32,000 nucleotides of DNA, from assembly GCA_041659405.1 (NCBI GenBank), contig JBAZYK010000001.1, forward strand, positions 180,001 to 212,000, read 5' to 3'. A program made the position numbers and the translations under genes. Each line of letters starts with the position of its first letter. Position 1 is the first letter of the stretch. Source of the DNA: Candidatus Altimarinota bacterium (GTDB lineage: Bacteria; Patescibacteriota; Gracilibacteria; UBA1369). This document shows positions 1-31,499 of this stretch, in pieces. The notes below the pieces were generated by a model. The model worked only from the letters and a program-made list of their open reading frames with translations. It searched no databases and had not been told where the DNA came from.

Positions 1-1449
1 CCGATTGAGGATAAGAATTTCTTGAAGTTTTTGGGAAAGCCCTTGTTGCTTCATCAGTTAGAGCAGCTTTCAGTTTTTTTTGATGATTTTATTGTCATTG
101 GTGGAGCACATAATCTGGAAAAAATTCGGGAGCTTTTGAATGGCTGGAAGGCGAATAAAACTGGAGGGAAGGCAAAATCCGGCAAATCTAAATTAAAATC
201 CACAGGTCCAAAATTCCAATTTGTTGAACAAAAAAATCTGGATGAGGGCATGGCCGGGGCTTTATTAAGCGCTGAAAGCTTAATCGGGAAAGAGCCGATT
301 TTGGTTGTGAGTGCGAACGATGTCGTTGAAAGTCAGGCTTATAAACTTATGCTGGAAGCGATTAAGTCTGTTGATGGCGCAAACGGCCAGGCCAAGAGTG
401 CCGCTAAAAAAAGCCAAAAAAAGCTCGTTCTGCTCGCGAAAGGAGTAGGCACTTCGGGCCAACTTGAGAGCTTTCTCATCGGCAAAAAAGTTGAAAGTTA
501 TTTCCCTGGTGGATATTTAAAAACGGCAAAAGATGGCTCCATTCAGGGCATTGTAGAAAAACCGGGCGCGGGGAATGAACCAAGTGACATGATCAATCTG
601 GTTATCCATTATCATAAAAACAGTGAAGCGTTATTAAAGGCTTTGCATAGCGTTAATTCGACTAAAGATGATAGATATGAAGTTGCGATGGACCACCTGA
701 TTAAAGCAGGTCACAAGATGAAGTCAGTGCCATATAATGGCTTCTGGCAAAGCATTAAATACCCATGGCACGTTTTAAGTTTGATGGAATATTTTTTGAG
801 AACGATTGAAGGAAACGGAGAGCGCAAGGCTCGTGGTAAAAATAAGCCCTTCATACTTGAAGGCAAAAACGTTGAAATTGCAAAAACAGCAATCATTAAA
901 GGCCCGGTTTTTCTGGATGATGGTGTAAAAGTTTTTGAAAATGCGGTGATTTCAGGTCCGGCCTATATCGGTAAAAATAGTATTGTGGCCACAAATGCTT
1001 TGGTTCGCGGATCAATGACCGGCGAAAATTGTATTATTGGGTTTAGTACAGAAGTTGCCCGCAGCTATCTTGGTGACATGGTTTGGACTCACAGTAATTA
1101 TATTGGTGATAGTGTAATTGGTAATAATGTTTCTTTTGGAGCCGGCACGGTAACTGGCAATTTACGGCTTGATGAAGGCAATATCAAGGTTAATATTACA
1201 GATGTAAGAATCGATAGTGGCCGTAATAAATTCGGTTTAATTACAGGTAATAATGTTCGCTGTGGAATCAATACAAGCTTTATGCCAGGCGTAAAAATCG
1301 GTAATAATTCCATGATTGGTGCGGGAATAATTGTGGCGGAGGATATTCCGGACAATAAATTGGTTTATGGAAAAACTGAACTTGTAATTAAAAATTATAC
1401 AGCAAAAATCGACGAAAAAAAGCGGGCAGAGATGAAGGGGAAGTTATAA
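1..1449 (+). CDS. Sugar-phosphate nucleotidyltransferase fused to a left-handed beta-helix (hexapeptide repeat) domain, GlmU-like architecture; 5' partial
   Basis: The frame is open from base 1 (PIEDKNFLKFLGKPLL...), so the listed TTG at 22 is probably internal. The N-terminal half has nucleotidyltransferase-like blocks (GKPLL.HQLE, DEGMAGALL, ILVVSANDVV, IVEKPG). The C-terminal half is rich in hexapeptide repeats (IGKNSIV, IGFSTEV, IGDSVIGNNVSFGAGT, IGNNSMIGAG). Two Lys-rich low-complexity inserts are present. Confidence 0.75.
   Translation, partial: PIEDKNFLKFLGKPLLLHQLEQLSVFFDDFIVIGGAHNLEKIRELLNGWKANKTGGKAKSGKSKLKSTGPKFQFVEQKNLDEGMAGALLSAESLIGKEPILVVSANDVVESQAYKLMLEAIKSVDGANGQAKSAAKKSQKKLVLLAKGVGTSGQLESFLIGKKVESYFPGGYLKTAKDGSIQGIVEKPGAGNEPSDMINLVIHYHKNSEALLKALHSVNSTKDDRYEVAMDHLIKAGHKMKSVPYNGFWQSIKYPWHVLSLMEYFLRTIEGNGERKARGKNKPFILEGKNVEIAKTAIIKGPVFLDDGVKVFENAVISGPAYIGKNSIVATNALVRGSMTGENCIIGFSTEVARSYLGDMVWTHSNYIGDSVIGNNVSFGAGTVTGNLRLDEGNIKVNITDVRIDSGRNKFGLITGNNVRCGINTSFMPGVKIGNNSMIGAGIIVAEDIPDNKLVYGKTELVIKNYTAKIDEKKRAEMKGKL
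420..463 (+). repeat. 44-nt GC-rich interspersed repeat, copy A (inside the nucleotidyltransferase CDS)
   Basis: AAAGCTCGTTCTGCTCGCGAAAGGAGTAGGCACTTCGGGCCAAC matches copy B at 30 of 44 positions without gaps (hand count). The invariant blocks AGCTCG, GCT and ACTTCG are retained. Confidence 0.6.
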
Positions 1450-1530: not shown

Positions 1531-2724
1531 CTACGTATATTTCCAAAAATTCTCTTTATTGACGGAGTGCTGCGATTCAATTTTATCTTCATAAAGCTTT
1601 ATAAAAGCGATTGATGGTTTTTCAGCATGGCCATATTTAATTTCCATTGGAACCAGTTTTCCAGTCAGGTTGTTTAATAAAACAAGATCCACTTCGGCCA
1701 TATTTTTTGATCTCCAGAAAAATAGCTTGTATGGATTGCCGAAATATTGCATGTCCCAACTTAAAGTATTTACTACTAAATTTTCAAACATTGCGCCGAT
1801 ATCCGTGCGGTTTTCAGGCAGCACAAAATTGTCGATAAGTGCGTTTCTAATGCCAAGATCAGTAAAGTATATTTTAAAATTTCTGGTTACTTCTTTCCGT
1901 GGATTGCCTGAAAAAGCTTTTAAAATATGGATAATTTTAAATTTTTCACAAAGGCCCAAATATTCAACTACTGTTTTCCTGTTGATCTCCAGTTTAAGCG
2001 CAAGTTCATTTGGATTCACTTCCGATCCAATCTGCAAAGCAATCATATGCAAAAGTCGCTTGAAGACTTCAGGCATTCGTATGCCTTCCAATTCAAAAAT
2101 GTCTTTGTAAAGAAAACTGTTTATATAGTTTTTTAAAAGCTCAATTTTGGCCTCTCTGCCTTCTGTTAAAAAAACTCCCGGCATACTCCCATAAAGTAAA
2201 AAATCGTTTATTGAAGCTTCAATTTTGCCTTTATTAACAAGTTTATTGTATTTTCCAAGATTGAAATCCGCATTTAAATCCTGATTGATTTCGCGAAAAG
2301 TCAGCGGGAACATGTCCAGTTGAATGTTTCTGCCGTACAAACTGTCTCCGATATTTTTTAGCATCAAAAATGAGGCTGATCCTGTGGCAATAACTTTTAT
2401 ATTTTGGAAGTGATCGTGAATTAATTTTAAAATAGATCCGGATTTTTGCAGATGTTGGATTTCATCCAAAAGAAGCAATTTTTGTTTATTGGCTGATTGT
2501 TTTTCAGGAGATCCTAAAATATTTTCTAAAGTCGCAAGATCGGGCTTGAAAATATTCCTTGCCCCAATTTCTTCAAAATCAAAATAGATTGAATTGAAAT
2601 TTGCGCCCTGTACTCTTTTAATCTCAAAAGTCTTTCCAACCTGCCTCTGCCCGACTAAAAGTATTACTTTATTGTCTTTGGAAGCCAATAAATCGTTGAT
2701 TCTTGCCGTGATATGTCTTTGCAT
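1531..2724 (-). CDS. AAA+ ATPase of the COG1373 / DUF4143-containing type
   Basis: Walker A-like GQRQVGKT and Walker B-like LLLLDEIQ. The length and C-terminal region (FFWRS....EVDLVL) are typical of the AAA_14 + DUF4143 architecture. Confidence 0.8.
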   Translation of the reverse strand: MQRHITARINDLLASKDNKVILLVGQRQVGKTFEIKRVQGANFNSIYFDFEEIGARNIFKPDLATLENILGSPEKQSANKQKLLLLDEIQHLQKSGSILKLIHDHFQNIKVIATGSASFLMLKNIGDSLYGRNIQLDMFPLTFREINQDLNADFNLGKYNKLVNKGKIEASINDFLLYGSMPGVFLTEGREAKIELLKNYINSFLYKDIFELEGIRMPEVFKRLLHMIALQIGSEVNPNELALKLEINRKTVVEYLGLCEKFKIIHILKAFSGNPRKEVTRNFKIYFTDLGIRNALIDNFVLPENRTDIGAMFENLVVNTLSWDMQYFGNPYKLFFWRSKNMAEVDLVLLNNLTGKLVPMEIKYGHAEKPSIAFIKLYEDKIESQHSVNKENFWKYT

Positions 2725-15424: not shown

Positions 15425-15982
15425 TCACTTTGTTTGCTCAACTCTCTTTATTCTATCATAAAAAACCAAAATTAGGAAGATGCTTATGGTTAAAAGGCTA
15501 TCGGCAAGATTAAAAACAGGAAAAGAGCCCACCGAAATATAATCAATCACATATCCTCTAAAAAGGCGGTCGATAATATTTCCGAATGCTCCGGCCATAA
15601 TCATACTCATGATTATTTGGGCTTTAGGAAGCCGTAAATTAAAGTAATTCGCAATAAAAAAAGGTAGAATTACAATTAAAACCAAGTTTAAAATGATTAA
15701 AATCGTGTATGGCAGTGGGATACTCCAGGCAATACCCGTATTTTGCTCATAGCGCAGAGAAATCCCTGGCAGCAAAAAAAACGGTTTCTGCCAATACATT
15801 TGGGCGGTCCATTTCAAGAATTGGTCCAATATGACCAAAAATCCGCCGGAGACACCTATTTTTAGCAAGATTTTCCCGCCATGCACGAAGTTCTTATTTC
15901 TACCGTAAGCGGAGCGAGCTCCATGGATTTCTTTAAGATTGAACATTCTTAACATTTTCAATAATCTATTATCATTCTGCAT
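15425..15982 (-). CDS. lspA: Lipoprotein signal peptidase (signal peptidase II); start codon uncertain
   Basis: ILDQFLKW, GNIIDRL and FPVFNLADSLLTI match the LspA conserved Asp-containing blocks. In-frame alternative starts are ATG 15946 and GTG 15886; the latter gives a typical protein of about 153 aa. Confidence 0.8.
   Translation of the reverse strand: MQNDNRLLKMLRMFNLKEIHGARSAYGRNKNFVHGGKILLKIGVSGGFLVILDQFLKWTAQMYWQKPFFLLPGISLRYEQNTGIAWSIPLPYTILIILNLVLIVILPFFIANYFNLRLPKAQIIMSMIMAGAFGNIIDRLFRGYVIDYISVGSFPVFNLADSLLTISIFLILVFYDRIKRVEQTK
15879..15922 (-). repeat. 44-nt GC-rich interspersed repeat, copy D
   Basis: The minus strand reads GGAGCTCGCTCCGCTTACGGTAGAAATAAGAACTTCGTGCATGG, matching copy B at 34 of 44 positions without gaps (hand count). 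Confidence 0.7.
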
Positions 15983-17299: not shown

Positions 17300-18386
17300 A
17301 GAACGCTCCAGCCAAAGGCCGGATGCGCAACTTGAACTGCTTTATATTGGCAGTAGAAATGGCATGGAAAAAAAGATGATCGAAGATCTGCATGTGCCTT
17401 ATTATGGCATATCTACGGGCAAACTTCGTCGTTATTTTTCTTTGCAGAATTTTATTGATGTTTTTAAAATTCCAATTGGTTTTGTGCAGGCATTGATTAA
17501 ATTGATTGGATTCAAGCCAAAGGTGGTTTTTTGTAAAGGTGGTTATGTTTGTTTTCCGCTGGTGATGGCCGCCCGTCTTTTAAAAATTCCGGTAATTCTT
17601 CATGAATCCGATGTTACGCCGGGGCTTGCCAATAAGCTTTCCGCCCGCTTTGCCACTACGATCTGTATTTCTTTTGAAGAAAGTCGTAAATTTTTTCATG
17701 GTAATAAAAAGATTGTTCTTACCGGAAATCCCGTTAGAAAAGAATTGATGTTTGGCAATAAAGAAGATGGTTTGCGTTTTGTGGATTTCAATGAAGATAA
17801 GCCGATATTACTGTTTATGGGTGGAAGCCTTGGTGCTGAATTTATCAATGAATTTGTTTGGAAAAATCTGGATCGGTTGCTGATTCATTATCAGGTTGTG
17901 CATATTTGCGGCCAGGGGAAGAGCAAATCTCCGGAAGAACTTTTAAAACTACTGGACGAAAAACGTAAAAAAAATCTTTCACGTTATCGCATTTTTAATT
18001 TTGTTCAGCAGGAATTAAAAGATCTATATGCGCTTGCTAATGTGATTATTACGCGCGCCGGAGCCATCACGCTTTCCGAGATTGATTTCTTTGATAAACC
18101 GGCCATATTGATTCCTCTTCCCGCAAAAAATGTTAGCAGAGGTGATCAAATTGAAAATGCTAAAATATTCGCTAAACATCATCTTTGCGCGATTTTACAG
18201 CAGGACGAATTTACGGATGAACAATTCTTTGATGAACTTAAACATTTGCTTCAACCCGGGCTAAAAGATAGTATTCCGGCGAAGAGAAAGGAGCTCGCTT
18301 CGCTCGCGGCAGAAGCAGGCACTTCGCGCGTGGTTCCGAAAACCACCGCACTGCAAAAGATCGCAAACTTAATCGAAAATATATGA
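17226..18386 (+). CDS. murG: Undecaprenyldiphospho-muramoylpentapeptide beta-N-acetylglucosaminyltransferase
   Basis: N-terminal LSGGGTGGHIIP signature and a GT28 C-terminal block (FMGGSLGA ... ITRAGAITLSE). It lies directly after ftsW, as in dcw clusters. Confidence 0.9.
   Translation: MRLVLSGGGTGGHIIPNIALIHELKERSSQRPDAQLELLYIGSRNGMEKKMIEDLHVPYYGISTGKLRRYFSLQNFIDVFKIPIGFVQALIKLIGFKPKVVFCKGGYVCFPLVMAARLLKIPVILHESDVTPGLANKLSARFATTICISFEESRKFFHGNKKIVLTGNPVRKELMFGNKEDGLRFVDFNEDKPILLFMGGSLGAEFINEFVWKNLDRLLIHYQVVHICGQGKSKSPEELLKLLDEKRKKNLSRYRIFNFVQQELKDLYALANVIITRAGAITLSEIDFFDKPAILIPLPAKNVSRGDQIENAKIFAKHHLCAILQQDEFTDEQFFDELKHLLQPGLKDSIPAKRKELASLAAEAGTSRVVPKTTALQKIANLIENI
18290..18333 (+). repeat. 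44-nt GC-rich interspersed repeat, copy B (inside the murG 3' region)
   Basis: GGAGCTCGCTTCGCTCGCGGCAGAAGCAGGCACTTCGCGCGTGG, with ungapped similarity to copies A, C and D. Confidence 0.7.
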
Positions 18387-21039: not shown

Positions 21040-21114
21040 TGGAGCCGGAGGCGGGATTCGAACCCGCGACTTACTGTTTACGAAACAGTTACTCTACCCC
21101 TGAGTTACTCCGGC
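21040..21114 (-). tRNA. tRNA-Thr (anticodon CGU), with encoded CCA
   Basis: The minus strand reads GCCGGAG TA ACTC AGGGGTA GAGT A ACTGT TTCGTAA ACAGT AAGTC GCGGG TTCGAAT CCCGC CTCCGGC T CCA. The cloverleaf is complete and the anticodon loop TT-CGT-AA gives the anticodon. Confidence 0.95.
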
Positions 21115-29416: not shown

Positions 29417-31321
29417 TTACAACACCTTTATCAGGTAAAGATCCGCTATTCCATCATCAAAGAAATTTTTGGCAGAACTAATGGTGCCAAATGGCGCCAA
29501 ATAAGTGCTAAGAACTTTGTTATTGTTCAATCCAAATGCCGCAAAAATCGCACCTAAATTAAGTTCATTAATTTGATCAGCGGTACGCGCAATCGGCTGG
29601 ATTGTGTCTTTATAAAGCGCGCTGTTTTTAAGGTTGGTCTTTTTGCTACCAAGACTGCGATCAATACTTTGCTGTAAAGATTCAAGGCTTGTACTAACCG
29701 CTAAAACATTTCCCAAAGCCGTGTAATGAATCCCGAAGCCTTTATCGCCAATGGCCAAAGAACTTATATTAACGCCGTTATAAACACTATCTGAACGGGT
29801 AATTTGTTCCGGGCTGGCTACGATTTCTTGGCCTTTTGTGCCATCTGGCAGCGTTACATCCTGTATTTTTGGTTCAAAAATAGCGCTCATCTTTACAAAC
29901 GCATTGACGATTTTTTCAACACGAAGTAAATCGGAATTCTTATCGTTTAATTCCAGGTAAAAATTAACTTCCGGTTGCTCAAAACTCTTTTGAGCGGTAA
30001 CAAGATATTCACCTTTTAATAATGGGAAAATATCATCCGTAAGTGAAATATCTTTACCCAAATATTTTTCTTTCTGGTATTCAAGCAGGCCCTGAACGAT
30101 CACTGCATTTGCCTTTGTACCGGCCTTAAACAGGTCTTCCATGCGGCTGAGTTCTTTGTTTATATCATGGCCTCCCATAATCATTATTGGATTTTCGGCA
30201 GCGAGTTCCAAAAGTTTTCCCGCGTATTTATCGCTGTAAGTTAGGTAGGTATTTCCGTTCAATTCGGCGCGATTAATACTGCTGAAAGTCTGGATATGGA
30301 ATTCTTTATTTTCCGCGAAGACGGTCATTCCGGCAGCGGAGAAAATCTTTAGAAATGGCTGCAGATTGTTAAAATCCTGAATCTTTCTACTCATGAAAAC
30401 CGGATTTTTAAGAAGTACCTCGAAAAATTTAGGAATGTTTACGTATCCAAAAGCAAGCCCATTGGATGGAAGATTGTTTGCCACTTTTCGATAATTAACC
30501 TCATCGGCAAGGTTCAAATTTGAATTACTTTTTTCATTAATAAAATCTTTAAGAAGGTCGTAACCGGAAGTCAGGACCAGATATTTATTAAAGAAAGTAA
30601 AGCTGATGGTTTGGCTGTTTTTGTAATGATAAAGCGTATAACCGCGAAGATTTTCCTGAAGAAGTTCGTCTCCGGATTGCTGCATTAAGCGAGTTTTGAA
30701 AAAACCAATAGCTGCATTTGCGTCCTTAACTTCCACCATTAAAACCGGATTTAATTTGCCGTCCGGAGTGCTGGATTTAACCATAACAAAGCCGGCTTTG
30801 CGGCCAATCCATGGCGAAATATTTTGGTAAGTTGCCGGCAAAACTACATTTAAAAGTCCAATCAGTTCCGCCTTCCGGTACAGAGGATAATTTGCGAGTG
30901 CCTTATAAAATTGCTGAACCTGACTTGAGTCGCCATCAATATTGACCTCCAACAAGCCAACTGTCGCATCTGCAGGTAATAATTCGGCTAAGGGTTGAGC
31001 TCTAAATATTTTTTGAAAAATCAGAACACTTACAAAAACCAGCCCGCAAATTGAAATCACCAACAAAACCGCACCTTTTATTTTTCGACTATTCTCGGGG
31101 GTAAGCTTTGCTTTTTTTTCAGGGGTGGCGGTAGCTTCAAGCTGTGATACAAGCTCGCTCATTGTGGTTGTCTCTTCCGCTTTTTGATCCAGCTCTTTCT
31201 TCTTTGGCTTAATTTTCTTAAGCAGTTTTTTAAATTTCCCATTTTTTGGCTTCTCCTGTTCAATCATTGTTTCATTTTTTTTGGTTGAAGCTACGGTCTT
31301 TTTTTTGCTTTTTTTTCCCAT
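29417..31321 (-). CDS. Large N-terminally anchored extracytoplasmic protein, function unknown (possibly DUF3352-like; unverified)
   Basis: Extremely Lys-rich cytoplasmic N-terminus, a single TM segment (AVLLVISICGLVFVSVLIF) and an external domain of about 530 aa. It has the same topology as the adjacent DUF4012 gene and lies 12 nt from it. Confidence 0.55.
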   Translation of the reverse strand: MGKKSKKKTVASTKKNETMIEQEKPKNGKFKKLLKKIKPKKKELDQKAEETTTMSELVSQLEATATPEKKAKLTPENSRKIKGAVLLVISICGLVFVSVLIFQKIFRAQPLAELLPADATVGLLEVNIDGDSSQVQQFYKALANYPLYRKAELIGLLNVVLPATYQNISPWIGRKAGFVMVKSSTPDGKLNPVLMVEVKDANAAIGFFKTRLMQQSGDELLQENLRGYTLYHYKNSQTISFTFFNKYLVLTSGYDLLKDFINEKSNSNLNLADEVNYRKVANNLPSNGLAFGYVNIPKFFEVLLKNPVFMSRKIQDFNNLQPFLKIFSAAGMTVFAENKEFHIQTFSSINRAELNGNTYLTYSDKYAGKLLELAAENPIMIMGGHDINKELSRMEDLFKAGTKANAVIVQGLLEYQKEKYLGKDISLTDDIFPLLKGEYLVTAQKSFEQPEVNFYLELNDKNSDLLRVEKIVNAFVKMSAIFEPKIQDVTLPDGTKGQEIVASPEQITRSDSVYNGVNISSLAIGDKGFGIHYTALGNVLAVSTSLESLQQSIDRSLGSKKTNLKNSALYKDTIQPIARTADQINELNLGAIFAAFGLNNNKVLSTYLAPFGTISSAKNFFDDGIADLYLIKVL

Positions 31322-31340
31322 ACTAGAAAATTAAATTAAA

Positions 31341-31384
31341 TGAGCTCGCGTCGCTTGCGATAGTAAAACGCACTTCGCGCGCGA
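31341..31384 (+). repeat. 44-nt GC-rich interspersed repeat, copy C (intergenic)
   Basis: TGAGCTCGCGTCGCTTGCGATAGTAAAACGCACTTCGCGCGCGA matches copy B at 33 of 44 positions without gaps (hand count). Confidence 0.7.
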
Positions 31385-31499
31385 TAGAAAATTAGTCCAG
31401 ATTAGTATCGCAGAATTCATTTTAAAGTTCAATTAAAATCTATTGGCGATATAAAGGAATCTGCTATAATTCAACACCGAAAACCCATTACATTTTTTT

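Follow-up and report, generated by a model that had tools for sequence, protein, structure and literature searches.

The 32,000-nt stretch of contig JBAZYK010000001.1 treated here (the window, always at its full length) belongs to a metagenome-assembled genome labelled 'Candidatus Gracilibacteria bacterium' at NCBI, that of an uncultured bacterium of the candidate phyla radiation (CPR) with an AT-rich genome. Genes in the window include one for a sugar-phosphate nucleotidyltransferase, lspA, ftsW and murG, and the start of alaS. Interspersed between and within these genes is a 45-nt GC-rich repeat element, the subject of this report, which is probably a small mobile insertion. The window DNA recurs in independent JGI, NCBI, ENA and Logan assemblies and is therefore not an assembly artefact.

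A first-pass annotation had aligned four ungapped 44-nt stretches, at 420-463, 18290-18333 and 31341-31384 on the plus strand and at 15879-15922 on the minus strand, termed here copies A, B, C and D. The sequences are exactly as quoted there, and an ungapped recount reproduces the hand-counted identities (B/D 34, B/C 33 and A/B 30 of 44); the other pairs match at 27 (A/C), 27 (A/D) and 31 (C/D) of 44 positions. When the window was searched for repeats without prior expectation, the family came out on top of the long direct and inverted repeat families (D2, I1 and I2). A single pair is not significant: 14 windows simulated with a first-order Markov model had best 44-nt pairs with 30-34 matches. 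Leave-one-out nhmmer searches recovered each omitted copy, at E = 2.4e-6, 6.5e-9, 7.2e-8 and 7.5e-8. The next-best match was a degenerate fifth copy at 814-860 (copy E), and nothing else rose above noise. The family is real, in that the mutual consistency of the four copies, unlike that of one pair, is significant.

The limits of the unit had been placed slightly off. Guided by empty sites, the boundaries define a unit of 45 nt, or 15 codons, that starts 2 nt before and ends 1 nt before those first given; its consensus is A(A/T)GGAGCTCGCTTCGCTCGCGGTAGAAGTAGGCACTTCGTGC(A/G)TG. The consensus is 58% GC and the window 39.5%, in line with the earlier remark that GC-rich copies stand out from an AT-rich background. 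It contains the direct repeats GCTCGC-N3-GCTCGC, and the motif CNCTTCG occurs twice, 24 nt apart.

Walking outward from the window proteins extended the source genome to 60 kb (merged; window coordinates -10044 to 49962). Together with 22 kb of a contig from another metagenome (L008/L025, see below), this makes up the ~82 kb in which copies and a mobilising enzyme were sought. An all-copy profile detects about nine copies in the 60 kb, with A-D clear and G fairly clear (Table 1). Copies beyond the original four are thus E in the window, F, G, H and I in its flanks, and three near-consensus copies on two contigs of the other metagenome. Copy E had nhmmer E-values of 0.05-0.6 with early models; the value of 2e-8 comes from an extended model that already includes E. 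The genomic contexts of A-D had been correctly described as a nucleotidyltransferase coding sequence, the 3′ end of murG, a divergent intergenic region and the 5′ end of the lspA open reading frame (ORF), with B in murG, C intergenic and D at lspA. Copy C lies upstream of a promoter-like site of alaS. The ends are kept and the middle is altered in variant G and possibly in I, and G is still a multiple of three; this suggests that the ends are what is recognised.

Table 1. Copies of the 45-nt element, target-side flanks and other features (window positions unless a contig is named; fractions are matches to the consensus)
Feature	Position	Strand	Context or sequence	Remarks
Copy A	418..462	+	in frame in sugar-phosphate nucleotidyltransferase gene; encodes KKLVLLAKGVGTSGQ	33/45
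Copy B	18288..18332	+	in frame in murG, C-terminal linker; encodes KELASLAAEAGTSRV	41/45
Copy B target-side flank	18333..18347	+	gttccgaaaaccacc	relative's empty site gcgaagaaa^gtggaaaaattaac
Copy C	31339..31383	+	intergenic, between 634-aa gene (29417-31321, minus) and alaS (start 31501, plus)	34/45
Copy C target-side flank	31384..31396	+	atagaaaattagt	
Copy D	15880..15924	-	in frame in lspA ORF, N-terminal tail, divergent lspA/ftsW region; encodes (H)GARSAYGRNKNFVH	38/45
Copy D target-side flank	15865..15879	-	gcgggaaaatcttgc	relative's empty site aaagaaatca^gcggaaaaattttgc
Copy E	814..860	+	same nucleotidyltransferase gene as A; encodes NGERKARGKNKPF	degenerate; right-hand boundary uncertain
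Copy F			intergenic, rpsF/LysM	degenerate
Copy G	32154-32206 (window-equivalent, just past window end)		inside alaS	48-nt variant
Copy H			inside methyltransferase/GT2 gene	degenerate
Copy I			intergenic, enolase/lactamase_B	degenerate; ends kept, middle different
Promoter-like site of alaS	31443-31470			
Extra nucleotides before copy A	386-417		nucleotidyltransferase gene	31 nt
Lys-rich insertion	154-195		nucleotidyltransferase gene	42 nt
Extra segment	1450-3580		between nucleotidyltransferase and GT2 genes	2.1 kb
AAA_14/DUF4143 ATPase gene	1531-2724	-	in the extra segment	
murG stop codon overlap	18383-18386		ATGA	
tRNA-Thr (CGT) gene	21040-21114	-		
Insertion in relative	25196 (window-equivalent), on L022		mutS 3′ end	36 nt
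Insertion in relative	L019 10011-10040 (window-equivalent ~19564)		just after GT4 gene	23 nt
infC region	L008 9425-10006 / L025 9226-9504		other metagenome	

Filled and empty sites can be compared in a close relative, represented by 31 kb from sample SRR22388055 (contigs L019, L020 and L022) with an identity to the window of 0.906-0.921 over aligned DNA. The relative is without the element at four of the six comparable sites, namely those in murG (B) and lspA (D) and both in the nucleotidyltransferase gene (A and E), and has no replacement there; copies C and G are common to both genomes. At the copy B site, L019 shows a clean 45-nt gap, and its MurG, 94% identical to that of the window, nevertheless lacks exactly the 15 residues encoded by copy B. 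The insertion is also missing from the 74%-identical MurG of L016. The copy D site in L019 is likewise a clean 45-nt gap, the ORF reading ...NLKEISGKILL... where the window has ...NLKEI[HGARSAYGRNKNFVHG]GKILL.... Over the 8.5 kb that align with L019, no window-specific indels are larger than copies B and D, each of exactly 45 nt.

Copy A is missing from the relative (L020/P0127) and from each of the ten other homologues in the alignment. At this site 78 nt are extra in the window, namely the element and an adjoining A-rich stretch of 31 nt; the gap is 78 nt rather than 45 because these 31 nt, which carry a tandem duplication, precede the element. The 31 nt have no counterpart in the relative, and the duplication, of AAAAAAAGC, overlaps the first bases of the element. 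At the copy E site the relative shows a 36-nt gap, at 812-847. As outgroup homologues are without both A and B, insertion is the derived state at these two sites.

Copy C differs between window and L022 by five substitutions and one indel inside the element, compared with ~3 differences in ~195 nt of flank, and copies C and G together have eight substitutions in ~92 nt (about 9%), compared with 8-9% genome-wide. There is no extra conservation; the copies diverge at about the genome-average rate.

Seven insertion sites, five filled and two empty, can be read with confidence in the orientation of the first-pass annotation. In five of them the insertion point is followed directly on its 3′ side by RYRR, an optional C and A4-6, after which T or C is usual: gtggaaaaatt (murG, empty), gcggaaaaatt (lspA, empty), atagaaaatt (copy C), atagcaaaaaacc (L008) and ataaaaaatttt (ispE copy of the L008 contig). 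The motif RYRR(C)AAAA has a frequency of 0.0015 per position in this genome, and five sites at the same offset give P ~2e-13, for a motif chosen post hoc. An A precedes the insertion point in six of the seven sites. Comparison of filled and empty sites at B and D reveals no target-site duplication, only a plain gain of 45 nt with at most a 3-nt GGA microhomology. There are no terminal inverted repeats, as the ends AAGGAGCTC and CATGCACGA (the latter being the reverse complement of the right end) share at most the CATG-type tetramer of copy D. A target-site duplication of CATGG or AGCT, judged by eye, fits one or two copies and fails for others.

GC skew is positive in almost every 5-kb bin of the 60-kb region, which therefore seems to lie entirely on a single replichore. 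Of the nine source-genome copies, eight are plus-oriented (two-sided binomial ~0.04, with four of the calls degenerate and the pair on L025 opposed), and this shared strand hints at a replication-linked bias. An apparent bias of genic copies for the sense orientation, five out of five, dissolved with the ispE copy and copy H.

Five of the six frames of the 45-mer are free of stop codons, and the copies make use of every one of these five, in both orientations. Copies in murG and the nucleotidyltransferase gene are read as KELASLAVEVGTS-type peptides, and those in lspA and alaS, together with copy E, as the GARFARGRSRHF type; copy E shares the frame of copy D's GARSAYGRNKNF. The HEVPTSTASEASS type is found in copy H and at the gene start of L006, TKCLLLPRAKRAP in the extended infC ORF of L008, and ARSAYFYRERS, from the opposite strand, in ispE. 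The frames first assigned to A-D stand: A and B are read in the same frame, D in a frame shifted by one, and C is non-coding. With copies read in different frames and in both orientations, conservation is at the nucleotide level and not at that of the protein, as had been proposed, and a protein motif is ruled out because all five open frames are used.

At least seven of 12 copies lie within ORFs, those in frame being in murG, lspA, the nucleotidyltransferase gene (two), alaS and ispE. The predicted inserted peptides include KELASLAAEAGTSR in MurG and ARSAYFYRERSR in IspE. In the two proteins modelled, MurG and the nucleotidyltransferase, they coincide with segments of low model confidence. 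The MurG model has a mean predicted local distance difference test score (pLDDT) of 87.6, and the copy B residues fall in its sole segment with pLDDT<50, residues 359-371. In the nucleotidyltransferase model, copy A lies in a low-pLDDT (<50) segment (141-168) and copy E in another (283-297). The copy D peptide is in the cytoplasmic tail of LspA before the first membrane helix. In alanyl-tRNA synthetase (AlaRS), the stretch with copy G comprises 45 residues (195-239), compared with 11 in the best-matching solved homologue, human AlaRS (4xem). Such permissive positions are what survivorship of random or semi-random insertions would leave.

A scan of public metagenome contigs with a degenerate pattern yielded 12 loci. 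Only two of these are convincing, L006 and L008; the counts leave out the pattern-ascertained L010 and L004/L015. L006 (43% GC) and L008 (48% GC) carry near-perfect copies with unrelated flanks on two contigs of another metagenome assembly. The extended L008 contig (L025) has a second near-perfect copy, which lies within ispE at a distance of 5 kb from the first. Agreement with the consensus is 42-45 of 45 positions for these three copies. The L008 copy lies ~20 nt upstream of infC and downstream of a promoter-like site. The infC gene there has no canonical start near the expected N-terminus, and the gene caller gives only the IF3 C-terminal domain (92 aa).

Searches of large collections were negative. 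A 19-base degenerate pattern gave three chance matches only, in high-GC organisms, among 185,579 reference genomes, and neither the same pattern nor two exact half-elements had a match in viral contigs. Known plasmids and phages produced chance partial matches only (E = 0.2-0.9). The family reaches beyond the source genome and looks rare or narrowly distributed. The description of it as previously unrecognised holds for Rfam, where no family matches, and for a literature text search with a 15-nt core, which returned no paper.

The element is also without recognisable structure. In agreement with the first description, which found neither inverted ends nor a hairpin and called the repeat non-palindromic, single-sequence RNA and DNA folding gives z-scores of -0.24 to +0.38 relative to shuffles, and no consensus secondary structure exists across copies on either strand. 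In Rfam searches only the tRNA passes the gathering threshold in the window, and matches around a consensus copy are at chance level (E>4). A structured RNA is thus rejected by Rfam, at gathering and permissive thresholds, and by consensus and single-sequence folding. No inverted pairs of copies were found. A 5-bp stem is directly preceded by GTAG in copy D and the consensus; at this position B has GCAG, C has ATAG and A has AAAG, and the tetranucleotide is absent from G. Several other identities were rejected by eye. The GGCAC...TGCAT stretch is not a sigma-54 promoter, as it separates GG from GC by 8 nt instead of the canonical 10 nt. Template and variable repeats of diversity-generating retroelements, CRISPR repeats, DNA uptake sequences and parS or Ter sites each fit one or two copies and fail for others.

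To sum up the behaviour of the unit, it is gained or lost as a discrete piece of 45 nt, is polymorphic for presence and absence, has a one-sided site preference, is read in several frames, lacks structure and occurs in a second metagenome. The best explanation, with a probability of roughly 0.8, is that these are non-autonomous, site-specific mobile insertions of 45 nt and ~58% GC in AT-rich CPR bacteria, tolerated in proteins as a disordered 15-residue loop. The unit would enter the chromosome as a discrete piece immediately 5′ of RYRR-(C)-A4-6, and insertion would proceed without target duplication or terminal inverted repeats. With a length divisible by three and stop codons in only one of six frames, the unit would add only a disordered 15-residue peptide where it enters a linker, tail or surface loop, as in murG, lspA, the nucleotidyltransferase gene, alaS and ispE. 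Tolerated insertions would survive and then decay at about the genome-average rate. The element itself would be selfish, and an enzyme with its gene elsewhere in the genome would move it in trans.

By analogy with known systems, this enzyme might be an IS200/IS605-RAYT transposase, of the single-strand 'peel and paste' HUH/Y1 type (RAYT, REP-associated tyrosine transposase; REP, repetitive extragenic palindromic sequence). The type needs neither inverted ends nor a duplication, has a one-sided target, inserts and excises seamlessly and shows a replication-direction bias, which is why it is named here. This identification is the preferred one, yet tentative and more likely wrong than right, since no such gene was seen in the ~82 kb, neither stem is significant and in IS608 the target is on the opposite side. 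A broader proposal, namely an active ultra-small site-specific element with a single-strand or otherwise undescribed mechanism that makes recurrent 15-residue insertions in essential proteins of reduced genomes, is possible and is likewise offered with reserve.

Several observations weigh against mobile insertion or against details of it. Four of the nine copies in the source genome (E, F, H and I) are degenerate calls, and the two L025 copies are oppositely oriented. Pfam matches in the ~82 kb include no transposase of any kind, RAYT/Y1 among them. The two small stem-loops, of 5 and 4 bp, are no better than those of shuffled sequence. The IS608 target is 5′ of the left end; the motif here is 3′ on the favoured strand. 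The reference-genome and viral scans gave no true copies, and a search of 5.8 billion proteins gave no candidate, with a locally validated profile of two element peptides in random flanks that left out the frames seen in ispE (ARSAYFYRERS) and lspA (GARFARG...). Finally, copies A and E, missing in the relative, are more diverged from the consensus than the shared copies C and G, which fits precise loss or diverged source copies better than recent insertion from a single master. Precise excision of A and E in the relative, source copies that were already diverse, or selection reshaping intragenic copies are possible reasons for this pattern.

Three rival explanations have been weighed. The first and main one is templated 'filler', that is, a short nucleic acid such as a reverse-transcribed small RNA or retron-like single-stranded DNA captured at breaks or forks near A-tracts. 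An inserted unit fixed in length and ends, with no inverted repeats and no target duplication, would be compatible with it, and the identical consensus on different contigs looks as if it came from one conserved master molecule; the GGA microhomology between the element start and the B and D targets fits as well. Filler is nevertheless improbable, for neither a master gene nor a reverse transcriptase is seen in the ~82 kb, the unit has no Rfam family or stable fold, and the preservation of the ends around a different middle in G, and possibly I, is typical of enzymatic end recognition and not of copying from a single template.

A functional cis element under selection near cell-envelope and translation genes, be it a protein-binding site, an mRNA leader or a regulatory motif, is very unlikely. 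The majority of copies lie in ORFs, where various frames and either orientation occur, although all the intergenic ones (C, F, I, L006 and L008) lie between divergently transcribed genes, and C and L008 (upstream of infC) are within ~20-30 nt of a start codon. Orientation to nearby transcripts is inconsistent. The direct repeats GCTCGC-N3-GCTCGC and the doubled CNCTTCG, as well as a consensus that is identical in two organisms, could speak for such a function; set against them are the lack of structure and covariation, the faster divergence of copy C than of its flanks, and a relative that simply does without four of six comparable sites.

That there is no mobile element at all, only ordinary lineage-specific linker indels alike by chance or by convergent peptide coding, is effectively refuted: one 44-nt pair at 33-34/44 can arise by chance in such a window and the murG, nucleotidyltransferase and alaS sites are length-variable among homologues, but four-way and nine-way consistency is far beyond chance, the copies are translated in five different frames with some non-coding, other contigs carry near-identical 45-mers whose flanks are unrelated, and both L019 indels are exactly 45 nt with the same ends.

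Other differences between the two genomes were noted in passing. The nucleotidyltransferase gene of the window has a 42-nt in-frame Lys-rich insertion, NKTGGKAKSGKSKL, in a low-pLDDT loop; it is missing in L020, seems to have arisen by local duplication or slippage of GGAAGGCGAAATCC and has no match to the 45-nt element. Also missing in L020, where the nucleotidyltransferase gene is followed directly by the GT2 gene, is a 2.1-kb segment with an AAA_14/DUF4143 ATPase gene and a 198-aa FlgD_ig-like gene; this is probably a separate insertion or deletion event. The relative in turn carries in L022, at the 3′ end of mutS, a 36-nt insertion, AAAGCCCCAAGTCGCGAACAAGGACTTGGCAATAAT, with a 7-bp hairpin (CCAAGTC...GACTTGG), which may represent a second, palindromic family of small elements. 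A 23-nt insertion in L019 adjoins GGCACTTCACACGTGG, a sequence similar to the right half of the 45-nt element, and may be a truncated copy specific to the relative.

The name 'Candidatus Gracilibacteria' is associated with UGA recoding in some lineages. In the window TGA is a stop: the murG stop overlaps the ATG of the next gene and ORFs are long under table 11, from which the organism is taken to use the standard code. The tRNA-Thr gene is the sole Rfam or ARAGORN match in the window.

Comparison with known systems bears out the original view of an interspersed repeat, with some copies persisting in frame in genes, that is analogous to and yet distinct from REP, BOX, ERIC and Rickettsia palindromic elements (RPEs); the checks suggested along with that view gave results in its favour. 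RPEs occur only in Rickettsia and are palindromes of ~100-150 bp (Ogata et al., 2000, as summarised in PMC10969869). They too are short selfish interspersed repeats of a small genome, found in frame in unrelated and often essential genes with the peptide at permissive surface positions, and for them as well the transposing enzyme is not known. The present element differs in being 45 nt long and non-palindromic, in its CPR host, in its one-sided target motif and in the use of five frames where RPEs have one conserved ORF.

A second comparison is with REP sequences and REPINs with their RAYT (TnpA-REP) and with elements derived from IS200/IS605 (PMC3733652, PMC6006769, PMC8266576). REPs have a strong GC-rich palindrome, are extragenic and often form inverted pairs. 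The stable, imperfect palindrome makes up most of their 20-40 nt, and one of its ends bears a conserved GTAG or CGTC tag. The size range of 20-45 nt and the lack of terminal inverted repeats and target duplication are in common, and the consensus GTAG abuts a small stem-loop as in REPs (PMC3733652). A one-sided target, seamless gain and loss, and strand bias are likewise expected of single-strand HUH transposition by IS200/IS605 and REP-RAYT systems (PMC6006769, PMC8266576). In contrast to REPs, the stem of the element has 5 bp and is at chance level, GTAG is lost in most window copies, and the copies are mostly intragenic.

MITEs, the miniature transposable elements with inverted repeats (Correia, ERIC, BOX and QMITEs), have terminal inverted repeats and target-site duplications and usually measure 100-400 bp (PMC10969869). 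They share with the element a non-autonomous, multi-copy and sometimes intragenic nature, including in-frame fusions; inverted repeats, duplications and a size of 100-400 bp are all absent here. A further parallel is the mobile GC clusters of yeast mitochondrial DNA, which are palindromic units of a eukaryotic organelle (PMC4478555). These are also GC-rich mobile units of ~30-50 nt in an AT-rich genome that occur in genes and show presence/absence polymorphism; they differ in palindromic structure and organellar location and have no sequence relationship to the element. The element thus stands outside the RPE, REP/REPIN and MITE classes, being functionally closest to RPEs and close also to the yeast GC clusters.

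Notable features of the element are its size of 45 nt, a target specificity on one side only and a host in the CPR, and if it is truly active it would be among the smallest transposable units known. CPR genomes are tiny and gene-dense, and their mobile DNA is poorly charted. A unit of exactly 15 codons that is nearly stop-free would show how selfish DNA can spread in genomes that have almost no intergenic space. It would also account for some of the short insertions that set CPR proteins such as MurG, LspA, AlaRS and IspE apart from their homologues. The clean empty and filled sites and the one-sided motif provide a concrete handle for finding the mobilising enzyme. With an enzyme of the HUH/Y1 type, REP/RAYT-like biology would extend to the interior of genes and to the CPR; any other enzyme would mean a new mechanism. 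Such elements would be useful as strain markers, and they are a caveat for the annotation and alignment-based phylogeny of CPR proteins.

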